From: Actinomycetota bacterium
GTDB taxonomy: Bacteria; Actinomycetota; Acidimicrobiia; Acidimicrobiales; AC-35
Direction of reading: 5' to 3'
NCBI GenBank assembly: GCA_005884125.1
Contig: VAXP01000141.1
Coordinates: 1 to 36,968, forward strand
DNA: 36,968 nt
Shown: in pieces, positions 877-5,862 of the stretch
Position numbering within the stretch: position 1 is the first letter of the stretch
Layout of the letters: each line of letters opens with the position of its first letter
The notes under the pieces: generated by a model
What the model was told of the DNA's origin: nothing
Seen by the model: only the letters and a program-made list of their open reading frames with translations
Databases searched by the model: none
Position numbers and translations under genes: made by a program

Positions 877-2547
<1,671 letters not shown>

Positions 2548-2574
2548 TTAGCACTCTCAACCCTTGAGTGCTAA
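2548..2574. promoter_or_regulatory. CIRCE element (HrcA operator)
   Basis: Exact TTAGCACTC-N9-GAGTGCTAA about 50 nt upstream of groEL. A candidate -35 TTGCAC lies at 2604-2599. Confidence 0.97.
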
Positions 2575-2674
2575 CAGCAAAGCACGCGCGGGGCAGGCGT
2601 GCAAACCGCGCCGGAAGGGGCGAGGAGGGAGATAGGAGGGGCCGGAGAGGGCGAGGGGGGGCGGGGGGCCCGGC

Positions 2675-3142
2675 TCAGCGGGGCCCGACGCGGGGGCGGC
2701 TGAAGGCGGACTCGAGCCGCTCCAGCAGCTCGGCCTTCTGCAGCTCGGTCTCCCGGCGGGCCTGGAGCTCGTCCAGGCTGGTGTCCAGCAGCTCGCGGAC
2801 CTTGTCGACCAGGTGATCGGGGTCGAAGGGCTTGGTCAGGTACTCGTCGGCCCCCAGCTCCCAGCCCCGCACGTAGTCGCGCTCGGCCGTCTTGGCCGTG
2901 ACGATGAGGATCCGGGTCTCGGGGGCCAGGCCCAGCTGGCGGCGGCTGCGCAGCACCCCGAAGCCGTCCACGCCCGGCATCATCAGGTCGAGGACCAGGC
3001 AGTCGGGGGGCATGGCCCTCAGGGCGGCGATGGCCTCGGCCCCGTCGGCCGCCTCCCGGACCTCGAACCCCGAGTCCTCCAGGGTGAAGGCCAGGATGCC
3101 GCGGATGTCCGGTTCGTCGTCCACGATGAGCACGTTCCGCAC
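2675..3142 (-). CDS. Orphan single-domain response regulator (receiver) with a charged helical C-terminal tail
   Basis: Receiver motifs VLIVDDE, LDLMMP (phosphoacceptor), VTAK and YLTKPF are present, with no DNA-binding domain. GTG at 3142 was chosen because it follows a GCCGATAA -10. Confidence 0.9.
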   Translation of the reverse strand: MRNVLIVDDEPDIRGILAFTLEDSGFEVREAADGAEAIAALRAMPPDCLVLDLMMPGVDGFGVLRSRRQLGLAPETRILIVTAKTAERDYVRGWELGADEYLTKPFDPDHLVDKVRELLDTSLDELQARRETELQKAELLERLESAFSRPRVGPR

Positions 3143-3149
3143 CCTTGCG

Positions 3150-3177
3150 TTATCGGCCGCCACGGAGAGGAGTTGAG
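3150..3177 (-). promoter_or_regulatory. Sigma28 (FliA/WhiG/SigD)-like promoter of the receiver gene
   Basis: TCAA-N15-GCCGATAA, ending 7 nt before the GTG start. Confidence 0.7.
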
Positions 3178-3205
3178 GTTGGGCGCGCGTCACCGCCCCA
3201 GCGGG

Positions 3206-3481
3206 CTAGCCCCCGGCGACGGCGGGCACGATGGAGACGGTCTGGCCCTCGGCCACCGGCGTCTCCAGGCCCTGGAGGAAGCGGACGTCCTCCTCGGCCA
3301 CGAAGACGTTCACGAAGCGGCGCAGCTGGCCGGCGTCGTCGAACAGGCGCCGGCCGAAGCCGGGGTGGGCCGCGTCCAGTCCCTTCAGGACCTCGCCCAC
3401 GGTGGAGCCGTCGACCGACACCTCCCCCGCACCCCCGGTGAGGGTGCGCAGCTGGGTGGGGATGCGGACCTTCACGGGCAT
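3206..3481 (-). CDS. ThiS/MoaD/CysO-family ubiquitin-like sulfur carrier protein
   Basis: 91 aa with VRIPTQLR and LRRFVNVFV, ending in IVPAVAGG (di-glycine). Confidence 0.93.
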   Translation of the reverse strand: MPVKVRIPTQLRTLTGGAGEVSVDGSTVGEVLKGLDAAHPGFGRRLFDDAGQLRRFVNVFVAEEDVRFLQGLETPVAEGQTVSIVPAVAGG

Positions 3482-3511
3482 GGCGACTCCGACCTGGCAG
3501 CCCCGGGGCGG

Positions 3512-4747
3512 TCAGTCGTCGACTTCGACGGCTGACTCGAACGCCTCCAGGGTGGGGGCGATGGTAGCGGTGGGCCCGACGTGGGGGGCCACGGCGTCGA
3601 TGGTCTTGAGCCCGATGCCGGTGACGTAGGCCACCACCCGCTCGTCGCGCCGCACCACGCCGGACGAGGCCAGCTGGGCCAGGGTGGCGATCGTCACCCC
3701 GCCCGCGGTCTCGGTGAAGATGCCCTCGGTCCGGGCCAGGAGGCGGATGCCCTCGACGATCTCGTCGTCGGTGACCGAGCCGATGGCGCCCCCGCTCGAG
3801 CGCACCACGTCCAGGGCGTACCAGCCGTCGGCCGGGTCGCCGATGGCCAGGGACTTGGCGATGGTGTCGGGCTTCACCGGCCTCACGTGATCGGCGCCGG
3901 TGGCGAAGGCGGTGGCGACGGGCGAGCAGCCCTGGGCCTGGGCCCCTGACACCCGCAGGTGGGGCTCCTCGCTCAGCAGGCCGACGCGGTGCAGCTCGCG
4001 GAAGCCCTTGTGGATCTTGGTGAGCTGGCTGCCCGAGGCGATGGGGACGACGACGTGGTCGGGTGTCTGCCAACCGAGCTGCTCGGCCACCTCGAAGGCC
4101 AGGGTCTTGGAGCCCTCGGCGTAGTAGGTGCGCACGTTGACGTTGACGAAGGCCCAACTGGGATGCTCACCGGCCAGCTCGGCGCACAGCCGGTTGACGT
4201 CGTCGTAGGTCCCCTCGACGGCGATGAGGTTGCCGCCGAAGACGGCGGTGGTCACGACCTTGGCCTGCTCCAGGTCGCGAGGGATGAACACGTAGGACTC
4301 CATGCCGGCCCGGGCCGCGTGGGCCGCCACCGAGTTGGCCAGGTTCCCCGTCGAGGCGCAGGCCGCCACCTTGAAGCCGAGCTCGCGGGCCTTGGTCAGG
4401 GCCACGGACACGACCCGGTCCTTGAACGAGCCCGTGGGGTTGAGGGTGTCGTTCTTGAGCCATAGCTCGCCCAGCCCCAGCTGGGCGGCCAGGCGGTCGG
4501 CCCTAACCAGGGGGGTGAAGCCGGCGCCCAGGTCCACCGCCCCCTGGGCCCGAGCGGGCAGGAGGTCGGCGTAGCGCCAGATGGTGTCGGGGCCGGCCGC
4601 GATCCTCTCCCTGGAGGTGGCGGCGGCGATGCCGTCGTAGTCGTAGGCGACCTCGAGGGGCCCGAAGCAGTACTCGCAGACGTGCAGCGCCTCCGCCGGG
4701 TACGTGCGCGCGCACTCCCGACAGCGGAGCCCTTCGACGAACGTCAC
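3512..4747 (-). CDS. Threonine synthase-like PLP enzyme (fold type II); possibly an O-phosphohomoserine sulfhydrylase
   Basis: N-terminal CxxC..CxxC, PLP-lysine motif NPTGSFKDR, CASTGN, EGSKT and VTGIGLKT. The GTG start follows a GGGGAGG RBS. The family call is secure; the reaction is not. Confidence 0.88.
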   Translation of the reverse strand: MTFVEGLRCRECARTYPAEALHVCEYCFGPLEVAYDYDGIAAATSRERIAAGPDTIWRYADLLPARAQGAVDLGAGFTPLVRADRLAAQLGLGELWLKNDTLNPTGSFKDRVVSVALTKARELGFKVAACASTGNLANSVAAHAARAGMESYVFIPRDLEQAKVVTTAVFGGNLIAVEGTYDDVNRLCAELAGEHPSWAFVNVNVRTYYAEGSKTLAFEVAEQLGWQTPDHVVVPIASGSQLTKIHKGFRELHRVGLLSEEPHLRVSGAQAQGCSPVATAFATGADHVRPVKPDTIAKSLAIGDPADGWYALDVVRSSGGAIGSVTDDEIVEGIRLLARTEGIFTETAGGVTIATLAQLASSGVVRRDERVVAYVTGIGLKTIDAVAPHVGPTATIAPTLEAFESAVEVDD

Positions 4748-4754
4748 GGTTCCT

Positions 4755-4850
4755 CCCCATCGATCGGGCATTGGCACCTGACCGGCACATCTGGCCGATC
4801 TGGTTGCCGCGGCGTCAAAGGGCCCGTCCCTCAGCCGCTCTGGATGATGG
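4755..4850 (-). ncRNA. SAM-I (S-box) riboswitch, P4-less variant, probably translational
   Basis: The minus strand reads CATC-CAGAG-CGGCT-GAGGGACGGGCCCTTTGA-CGCCG-CGGCAACC...GGTGCCAATGCCCG-ATC-GATGGGG. This has the SAM-I core motifs, kink-turn GA steps and a CGGG/CCCG pseudoknot. The 3' strand of P1 overlaps the RBS. A candidate promoter TTGACG-N18-CACCAT lies at 4887-4858. Confidence 0.92.
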
Positions 4851-4956
4851 CAACACCATGGTGGACGAGGGCGGACCTGGCCGTCAAAAGGGTTCTGTGG
4901 GGTCCTCGCCTGGTCCCGCGTGAAGCCGGCGGGGCGGTGGGCGAGACTGGGCCCGC

Positions 4957-5862
4957 ATGCCCACACCGATCCTGCGCACCGTGCACCACCGCGACTTCCC
5001 CCCGGAGAGGCTGATGGCGGCCAAGCGGGGCCGCAGGGTGTCGGTCTGCCTTCCCGCCCGGGACGAGGAAGCCACGATCGGCCCCATCGTGGCCGCCGTG
5101 CGCAGAGAGCTGATGGAGCGCGTCGGCCTGGTCGAGGAGATCGTGGTGGTCGACGACGGATCCAGCGACGCCACCGCGGCCGTGGCCCGCGCCGCCGGGG
5201 CGCGGGTGGTGGCGGGCGAGGGCGTGCTCCGAGGCGAGGCACCGGGCGGCGCCGGGGGCAAGGGCGAGGCCATGTGGAAGGCGGTGTACGAGGCCAAGGG
5301 CGATCTCATCGCCTTCCTCGACGCCGACGTGCGCAACTTCGCCCCGTCATTCGTCACCGGTCTGCTCGGTCCGCTCCTCACCGACGACGACGTGGGACTG
5401 GTGAAGGCCCTCTACGACCGGCCTCTGGAGGGCGAGCCGGGCCAGGGGGGCCGCGTCACCGAGCTGGTGGCCCGTCCCCTGATCTCCCTCCTCTTCCCCC
5501 ACCTGGCCGCGGTGGGCCAGCCCCTGGCGGGCGAGTGCGCGGGGCGCCGCGAGGTCTTCGAGCGCGTCCCCTTCGCCCGGGGCTACGGCGTGGAGCTGGC
5601 CTTGCTGGTGGACGTGGCCGCCCGCTTCGGGATCGGCGCCATGGCCCAGGTCGACATAGGCACCAGGGTCCACCGCAACCGGCCCCTGGAGGAGCTCTCG
5701 CCCCAGGCCCTGGCCATCCTGCACACGGCCCTGGCCCGGGCGGGCACGGCCGTGCGCCCCGACCCCCTGCTGGTGCGGCCCGGGGCCGAGCCCAGCACCG
5801 TGGTCACCGGCGACTGCCCGCCTCTCATCGACATCCCCGCCTACCGCCGGCGCACGGCCTGA
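4957..5862 (+). CDS. gpgS: Glucosyl-3-phosphoglycerate synthase (GT81)
   Basis: VSVCLPARDEEATIG, GKGEAMW, FLDAD, GGRVTELVARPL, QPLAGE, GYGVE and RVHRNRPL. Confidence 0.9.
   Translation: MPTPILRTVHHRDFPPERLMAAKRGRRVSVCLPARDEEATIGPIVAAVRRELMERVGLVEEIVVVDDGSSDATAAVARAAGARVVAGEGVLRGEAPGGAGGKGEAMWKAVYEAKGDLIAFLDADVRNFAPSFVTGLLGPLLTDDDVGLVKALYDRPLEGEPGQGGRVTELVARPLISLLFPHLAAVGQPLAGECAGRREVFERVPFARGYGVELALLVDVAARFGIGAMAQVDIGTRVHRNRPLEELSPQALAILHTALARAGTAVRPDPLLVRPGAEPSTVVTGDCPPLIDIPAYRRRTA

Follow-up and report, generated by a model that had tools for sequence, protein, structure and literature searches.

The stretch of DNA analysed here, which we call the window, is a 36,968-base contig (C176; 73% G+C) of a 3.74-Mb Acidimicrobiales metagenome-assembled genome that consists of 183 contigs and has an estimated completeness of 93.57% and contamination of 2.91%. 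Between positions 4850 and 3206, all on the minus strand, the window carries an S-adenosylmethionine (SAM)-I riboswitch (4754..4850), a gene for a ThrC-family enzyme dependent on pyridoxal 5′-phosphate (PLP) (3512..4747, stop included) and a gene for a small protein of the ThiS/MoaD fold (3206..3481, stop included). A first-pass annotation made from the sequence had placed a SAM-I riboswitch, a ThrC-like enzyme, a spacer of 30 nucleotides (nt) and a sulfur carrier ending in GG in this order, and Rfam, Pfam and the open reading frames (ORFs) located every one of these elements where it had put them. Together with the comparisons described below, these elements make it very probable that the locus is an operon of two genes, metM and metO, controlled by a SAM-I riboswitch, with a function in homocysteine synthesis like that of the MetM/MetO system of Streptomyces.

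The riboswitch was found as a match to Rfam family RF00162 (4850..4754; 60.5 bits against a gathering score of 44.4, E = 8.9e-12, model positions 1-108), one of two Rfam matches in the window, the other being a tRNA. Its aptamer comprises P1, P2 with its kink-turn loop, the pseudoknot between the P2 loop and J3-4, and P3. The aptamer ends at 4754, 6 nt from the GTG start codon of the enzyme gene at 4747, and the ribosome-binding site GGGAGGA (4751..4757, minus strand; core GGAGGA at 4756-4751) lies 3 nt 5′ of the GTG; the site thus lies partly within the 3′ strand of P1, leaving no room for a terminator. Consensus scans of positions 2500-5200 returned 0 terminators and 0 sigma-70 promoters. 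Given the result of the sigma-70 scan, the candidate -10 hexamer CACCAT (4858..4863, minus strand; 7 nt 5′ of the aptamer) is proposed from its position and from its similarity to the TACCAT, TACAAT or TAACAT seen at the same offset when the 5′ flanks of relatives were compared.

The enzyme gene encodes 411 residues and ends with a stop codon at 3514-3512. The protein scores 250.4 bits against Pfam PALP, and in NCBIfam it reaches 305.9 against a cut-off of 303 for the threonine synthase model NF006050 and 292.5 against a cut-off of 167.1 for TIGR00260; since these curated threonine synthase cut-offs are passed, annotation pipelines call the gene thrC. Neither a CysK nor a CysM model is among the 25 families listed of the 44 NCBIfam families that the enzyme matched. 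The enzyme has a zinc-ribbon-like N-terminal extension with a four-cysteine motif (C9, C12, C24 and C27; 4667..4723, minus strand) and, in a conserved SFKDR motif, the presumed PLP lysine K109 (codon at 4421..4423, minus strand), a role that we assume by homology to solved ThrC structures. Following the enzyme stop by 30 nt, the carrier gene starts with ATG, ends with a stop codon at 3208-3206 and encodes 91 residues that match Pfam ThiS with 56.6 bits. The sequence PAVAGG directly precedes the stop codon and, since GG is already C-terminal, the window carrier needs no trimming. The CysO-like carrier encoded elsewhere in the same genome, to which it is 47% identical, has the tail GG-AG and would thus need trimming.

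Relatives of the enzyme are numerous. A word-based search returned at least 8000 proteins at E ≤ 1e-20, and the 120 relatives listed are 82-100% identical to the window protein; all of those with a source name are called threonine synthase, and the closest public proteins among the matches listed come from Acidimicrobiales metagenome bins. An exhaustive search of 50%-identity representatives gave 16,163 proteins at E ≤ 0.001, of which 2,213 also passed E ≤ 1e-30. The name threonine synthase is likewise given to all source-named relatives of a Micromonosporaceae homologue (120 listed, mostly Micromonosporaceae). Using an alignment of 11 sequences as the query, we also scanned named genomes, where 596 of 600 candidate stretches were confirmed, and took the best 80 loci for comparison; these come from Acidimicrobiia, Solirubrobacterales, Frankiaceae, Mycobacteriales, Chloroflexota, Nitrospirota, Aquificaceae and an Acidobacteria bin. 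A same-strand SAM-I riboswitch precedes the enzyme gene in 60 of the 80 loci (20/20, 13/20, 17/20 and 10/20 in the four batches), and the 20 loci without one are mostly from Nitrospirota and Chloroflexota. A MetO-like gene follows on the same strand in 72 of the 80, within 400 nt in 70 of them; two of the remaining eight loci are short of downstream sequence, and six (L051, L065, L066, L071, L078 and L091) have 3 kb clear of a carrier. With the riboswitch kept in 60 and the carrier in 72 of the 80 loci, the arrangement of riboswitch, enzyme and carrier is not due to chance, and the conserved unit is the leader, the enzyme gene and the carrier gene. Beyond this set, the homologue of Nonomuraea gerenzanensis also has a SAM-I riboswitch upstream.

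Among the carriers, the PAVAGG tail is near-invariant. GG forms the very C-terminus in 50 of the 70 complete carrier frames; in the remaining 20 it is followed by further residues or, for one of them, by a long fusion. The spacing between the two genes varies: gaps of 300-420 nt separate enzyme and carrier in L055, L059, L067, L069, L081, L088, L093 and L094, and Chloroflexota loci have an extra small ORF between the two genes (80 residues in L052:4278-4520) that is not present in the window.

A tree of 50 sequences separates the window enzyme from canonical threonine synthases. It contained 29 MetM-type rows (27 of the 80 loci, picked for taxonomic spread, together with the window protein and the Nonomuraea homologue), 12 canonical ThrC rows (11 canonical-type matches from sampled genomes of the class, plus the ThrC of the genome itself) and nine other ThrC-like matches with an N-terminal extension. 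The MetM-type rows form one clade (Shimodaira-Hasegawa-like approximate likelihood ratio test (SH-aLRT) 100) on a stem of 1.2 changes per site, the canonical rows form another (SH-aLRT 99), and the nine remaining rows fall into two more long-branched clades. As long branches meet, of which the tree program itself warns, and as the groups were chosen partly by score, we read the tree as delimiting a discrete subfamily and not as a rooted history. The two extra clades (G077, G018, G065 and G053; G028, G093, G041 and G007; loci L112-L120) are made up of ThrC-like proteins with an N-terminal extension and 30-42% identity to the window protein, which in some genomes are the sole ThrC-family match.

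The MetM-type clade also has a sequence signature. Comparison of the 29 MetM-type with the 12 canonical rows revealed 44 positions fixed differently, 11 of them in the N-terminal extension and 33 outside it. In all 29 MetM-type rows the canonical STGNTS reads STGNLA and the canonical SxNPYR reads NxRxYY; the residues of these two motifs in Thermus ThrC are, we assume, those that bind the substrate phosphate. All four cysteines are kept in each of the 36 MetM-type sequences aligned, whereas all 12 canonical ThrC rows are gapped at these columns, and K109 is invariant in both groups.

An AlphaFold model of the enzyme (predicted local distance difference test 93.8, predicted template modelling score 0.92) has the ThrC fold. 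The best Foldseek match is Aquifex ThrC (2zsj, E = 2e-30), and a second aligner superimposed bacterial ThrC structures (2zsj, 2d1f, 1uim and 6cgq) on residues 51-409 of the model with Z of 43-44 and a root-mean-square deviation of 2.2 Å over ~345 residues. The threonine synthase of Arabidopsis is a SAM-activated enzyme. Its structure (2c2b) aligned with Z of 50.4 over residues 1-411, so the N-terminal domain of plant ThrC overlays the extension of the window enzyme (residues 1-50). Neither structure-match list contained a structure labelled MetM.

We searched the whole assembly for the genes on which a homocysteine function would depend. The enzyme query had three matches, namely itself, a gene at C183:31581-32537 (39% identity) and one on C82 (27%), the last of which is IlvA. 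The C183 gene is a second thrC (TIGR00260, 325.6 bits) located between hom (540 bits), which it follows directly, and rho, and a thrB-like homoserine kinase gene is found at C107:19700-20434 (TIGR00191, 160.9 bits). In the assembly MetX was not found (best match 27.6 bits) and there was no match to HTS/MetA. The Cys/Met-PLP family has two strong members in the genome: one passes PRK07811 and, with the cystathionine beta-synthase gene beside it, looks like a reverse-transsulfuration pair; the other is under all cut-offs. These two members score 292 and 215 on the O-acetylhomoserine sulfhydrylase model, which has a cut-off of 495, and no MetY-type gene was thus identified in the assembly. MetH is encoded, split across two contig ends, and MetE was not found in the assembly. 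A search for NIL domains gave none in the operon; the sole one in the genome lies inside a 292-residue frame (C11:650-850).

The genome has a single ThiF-family gene (C22:8551-9258), whose product combines a rhodanese domain (residues 34-125) with a ThiF domain (residues 143-378) and scores 571 bits on NF006444. This one enzyme would have to serve the MoaD, ThiS, CysO-like and MetO-like carriers. As a separate observation, its gene and the 5′ part of metH share a contig and are ~7 kb apart. The sole JAMM (Prok-JAB) gene (C78:2613-2927) is located beside the CysO-like carrier gene and cysM and not beside metO; the JAMM-CysO-CysM cluster, which spans C78:2613-4300 (locus L012) and whose CysM scores 286.5 bits on TIGR01138, is a predicted protein-thiocarboxylate route to cysteine. 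By homology, then, the genome encodes all four published components of the Streptomyces system together with a separate ThrC, and searches of it found no acyl-homoserine route.

In a sample of 101 genomes of the class, each at least 85% complete, a MetM-type gene (a full-length or split match of at least 63% identity) is present in 32, and 31 of these 32 have a further ThrC-family match (the exception is G083). Of the whole sample, 61 genomes have MetX and four have MetA, none of these four being MetM-type. Among the 32 genomes with a MetM-type gene, 12 have MetX or MetA and 20 have neither; among the 69 without, the corresponding numbers are 53 and 16. The trend fits a route that is able to stand alone. 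Two of the MetM-type genes are not in one piece: in G087 (C8:476553-477768), a genome that has MetX, two overlapping segments encode residues 3-267 and 264-408, suggestive of a frameshift, and the gene of G075 is split across two contigs.

These results are consistent with the following scheme, in which substrate, sulfur donor, product and switching mechanism are modelled on the Streptomyces system. The homoserine kinase of the genome would make O-phosphohomoserine, and the rhodanese-ThiF enzyme would adenylate the C-terminal glycine of MetO and convert it to a thiocarboxylate. MetM would then remove the phosphate from O-phosphohomoserine, with the sulfur of the carrier added at the gamma carbon; release would yield homocysteine, which MetH would methylate to methionine. 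On binding of SAM, P1 would close, the ribosome-binding site would be shut and ribosomes would not load on metM, a form of translational control. Because no homoserine acyltransferase or O-acylhomoserine sulfhydrylase was found, metM-metO is probably the only homocysteine route in this genome.

A thiocarboxylate-dependent route of this kind, in which MetM and MetO convert O-phospho-L-homoserine to homocysteine in Streptomyces albulus, was reportedly described in 2024 by Hasebe, Adachi, Maruyama and Hamano (Appl Environ Microbiol 90:e0124724), as related in papers that cite their work. In Table 2 of GapMind 2026, MetO, Mec, MoeZ and MetM of Streptomyces appear as alternate methionine enzymes backed by experiment, with Hasebe et al. 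2024 given as the reference (PMC13759103); the same source describes Streptomyces MetM as MetO-thiocarboxylate-dependent, states that Mec is needed to mature Streptomyces MetO, and remarks that MetM "is often misannotated" as threonine synthase. The metM gene of S. albulus is stated to be preceded by a SAM riboswitch (PMC12172450). In a 2026 preprint the ThrC of Bacillus subtilis, which shows 33% identity, is termed "a distant MetM homolog". The first-pass annotation had pointed to this MetM/MetO precedent in Streptomyces, which proves to be real; it had foreseen that the window enzyme would be misannotated as thrC, as both the NCBIfam models and GapMind's remark on MetM bear out; and it had cautioned that the locus might be an extension of a newly reported pathway and not something entirely new, a judgement that we share. 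Indeed, the locus is a further member of a pathway that was published in 2024 and is already part of an annotation tool, and it adds no new kind of biology. The homocysteine function that it had proposed gains support from the gene content of the genome, the conservation of the enzyme-carrier pair and the separate clade: a second thrC, which it suggested seeking near hom or thrB, stands beside hom on C183; no metX, metA or MetY-type gene was found; one rhodanese-ThiF gene and one JAMM gene are available as the MoeZ-type activator and the peptidase that it proposed to look for; and the phylogeny against bona fide ThrC gave a clear separation (SH-aLRT 100 and 99).

Like the S. albulus system, the window has a ThrC-homologous enzyme followed by a ThiS/MoaD-type carrier with a SAM riboswitch upstream, in a genome with a separate housekeeping ThrC, a rhodanese-ThiF activator and a JAMM peptidase, and its enzyme is annotated as threonine synthase. 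It differs in its host, which belongs to the class Acidimicrobiia and not to the Actinomycetes, in a carrier that is already GG-terminal, whereas S. albulus MetO is by GapMind's account matured by Mec, in the N-terminal position of the rhodanese domain of the activator, and in a riboswitch that lacks helix P4 and is predicted to act directly on the ribosome-binding site. It differs further in that no MetX, MetA or MetY was found in the genome, so that the route may be the sole one. We regard the apparent lack of any alternative homocysteine route in the genome, the carrier that needs no trimming, the reversed domain order of the activator and the P4-less aptamer as slightly unusual.

Other systems share parts of this design. 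In Mycobacterium tuberculosis, the fold-type II PLP enzyme CysM, with CysO, Mec and MoeZ, uses a protein thiocarboxylate to convert O-phosphoserine to cysteine. The window enzyme is likewise a fold-type II PLP enzyme, proposed to act on a phosphorylated amino acid with a protein thiocarboxylate as sulfur donor, but it is of the ThrC and not the CysM family, and substrate and product differ. In the HcyS/MetY system of Wolinella succinogenes, which serves methionine synthesis, the thiocarboxylate of a ubiquitin-like carrier supplies the sulfur of homocysteine, with O-acetylhomoserine as substrate and a MetY-family enzyme as catalyst. There too the sulfur of homocysteine comes from a carrier thiocarboxylate, as we propose for the window, whereas no MetY-family enzyme was found in the window's genome. 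Canonical ThrC shares with the window enzyme its fold, its presumed substrate and 35-37% identity, but is without the four-cysteine extension, a carrier partner and SAM control.

The enzyme could instead be a MetM-type homocysteine synthase that uses free sulfide or another small donor, the carrier being dispensable or serving some other purpose. A study of a cyanobacterial MetM homologue tried Na2S as a sulfur source mimicking the MetM reaction (PMC12172450), and six of the 78 loci with enough downstream DNA show no carrier within 3 kb; however, the carrier is directly downstream in 72 of the 80 loci, in several phyla, its PAVAGG tail is near-invariant, and GapMind lists the Streptomyces enzyme as dependent on the MetO thiocarboxylate (PMC13759103). 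We consider use of a small donor improbable. Very improbable, in our view, is a true second threonine synthase or synthase/deaminase, with SAM tuning the split of O-phosphohomoserine between threonine and methionine. Both NCBIfam threonine synthase models and the closeness of the fold to solved ThrC speak for it, as do the threonine synthase and deaminase activities of a MetM homologue from Microcystis (PMC12172450). A canonical thrC is nevertheless already present beside hom, and the enzyme-carrier pair is conserved even though threonine synthesis does not require a sulfur carrier. Moreover, the MetM-type clade is far from canonical ThrC and is substituted at STGNTS and SxNPYR, the motifs presumed to bind the substrate phosphate, and an off-switch operated by SAM would make little regulatory sense for threonine synthesis. 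The versatility of fold-type II PLP enzymes and the 47% identity of the carrier to the CysO-like protein leave room for yet another replacement reaction, either formation of cystathionine from O-phosphohomoserine and cysteine, in keeping with the reported use of O-phosphohomoserine by plants for methionine synthesis, or formation of cysteine from O-phosphoserine and the carrier. Here a separate JAMM-CysO-CysM cluster is available for cysteine, the enzyme is a relative of ThrC and not of CysM, plant-type cystathionine synthesis employs a different enzyme family and no carrier, and SAM control points to methionine; we regard such a reaction as extremely improbable.

Several observations count against homocysteine synthesis by MetM and MetO, the reading that we prefer. 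The enzyme passes both NCBIfam threonine synthase cut-offs, and the solved structures closest to its model are all true ThrC. The Microcystis homologue, 51.6% identical to MetM, acted in vitro as threonine synthase and deaminase, and cellular methionine was not raised (PMC12172450). As far as sequence comparison goes, the orthology of the window enzyme to the tested S. albulus MetM (UniProt A0A059WBP2; its MetO is A0A059W7F4) appears to be indirect: no Streptomyces record was among the best 80 loci or the 120 listed relatives of the Micromonosporaceae homologue, a plasmid collection gave matches to Nonomuraea and haloarchaeal thrC only and no Streptomyces MetM, and a protein atlas gave just clusters of "putative threonine synthase", again with no Streptomyces MetM. 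The groups compared in the tree were set partly by search score, which favours a clean separation. The thrB match is slightly below its curated cut-off (160.9 versus 168.25), and in the activator the rhodanese domain comes first, opposite to the order of the MoeZ model, which the protein matches in two stretches with a score of 379 against a cut-off of 647. With the assembly 93.6% complete and in 183 contigs, metX, metA and metY are "not found", their absence not being proven. In the class, 12 of the 32 genomes with a MetM-type gene also have MetX, so that the gene is no strict replacement of the acyl-homoserine route, and the sampled genomes, being related, are not independent.

The aptamer of the window lacks helix P4. 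The cmscan alignment has a 17-position deletion at P4, and 18 nt are left after the GUGCCA motif, versus 29-56 nt in P4-bearing relatives; with P4 deleted, the aptamer is without the SAM-I four-way junction to which this helix belongs. We counted P4 in 61 leaders, those of the 60 riboswitch-bearing loci and of Nonomuraea, and found it missing in 38, which include all close Acidimicrobiia and nine Solirubrobacterales or Thermoleophilaceae leaders. P4-less leaders are those of the window and of loci L023-L046, L048, L053, L057, L060-L063, L068, L072, L074, L076, L077, L079, L082 and L083. In 30 P4-less leaders, 99.5% of cells are paired in P1, P2, P3 and the pseudoknot, a share that drops to 29-48% in slid controls, and a compensatory change is seen in eight of 20 pairs, including three of the four pseudoknot pairs; the observed covariation score was reached by none of 500 shuffles. 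Because pairing and covariation hold in these leaders, the fold is conserved without P4. The minimum-free-energy fold of the leader is no better than those of shuffled sequences (z = -0.62) and is uninformative here, the RNA being ligand-dependent and pseudoknotted.

Overlap with the ribosome-binding site is a recurrent arrangement. In 24 of the 60 riboswitch-bearing relatives the aptamer ends 6-11 nt 5′ of the start codon, as picked by a rule of our own, and in several Solirubrobacterales relatives a GC-rich hairpin followed by a T run is found instead of the overlap. Barrick and Breaker described in 2007 that SAM-I riboswitches can have the ribosome-binding site placed in the P1 3′ strand, and that this is commonest in Actinobacteria (PMC2258182). 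The window leader has the same placement, a known design, and departs from it in the loss of P4. It also differs from the SAM-I/IV variants, which are described as being without the P2 internal loop (Weinberg 2010, PMC2864571), since the window aptamer keeps that loop. A limited literature search, far from full, found no description of a P4-less form of SAM-I. It is possible, though we hold it only tentatively and think it somewhat doubtful, that in this lineage MetM/MetO is the sole homocysteine route and is governed by a distinct three-helix, P4-less subclass of SAM-I that still binds SAM and closes over the ribosome-binding site. Extension of P1 to the start codon was considered and rejected: cognate flanks gave a mean of -8.06 kcal/mol versus -7.43 kcal/mol for non-cognate flanks, and 403 of 5000 permutations were as low. 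The apparent complementarity between the flanks of the leaders more likely comes from a -10-like hexamer.

If the homocysteine reading holds, the 2024 Streptomyces route is widespread, occurring in Actinomycetota, Chloroflexota, Nitrospirota, Aquificota and Acidobacteriota, and would stand without any homoserine acyltransferase in 20 of the 32 sampled Acidimicrobiia genomes that carry a MetM-type gene. Because the relatives are labelled threonine synthase, Acidimicrobiia and other soil and water lineages would in metabolic reconstructions be wrongly scored as methionine auxotrophs with two threonine synthases. A MetM-type gene can be told from thrC by the four-cysteine motif, by STGNLA together with NxRxYY, by a GG carrier gene downstream and by a SAM leader upstream.

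The same genome has a second SAM-I riboswitch (G000:C39:15-101, plus strand; 58 bits), at the very start of a contig. It lies directly 5′ of a gene for a 187-residue GNAT acetyltransferase (PF00583, L022:111-674), an unusual target. A homologue of this acetyltransferase is present in one of 100 sampled genomes of the class (54% identity), at a locus with no riboswitch.

Around the metM-metO unit of the window lie unrelated housekeeping functions. No hom, thrB or other threonine genes adjoin the metM-like gene, and the hom-linked thrC sits elsewhere. A response regulator gene and the GroEL gene are the downstream neighbours; the response regulator was considered as part of the operon and rejected, as it follows the carrier gene in just one of 80 related loci. 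The upstream neighbours, which are divergent, encode a family-2 glycosyltransferase, a glycerate kinase and trehalose-phosphate functions. The glycosyltransferase gene is kept in 26 of the 80 loci, on the opposite strand in all 26, and we read its retention as lineage synteny.

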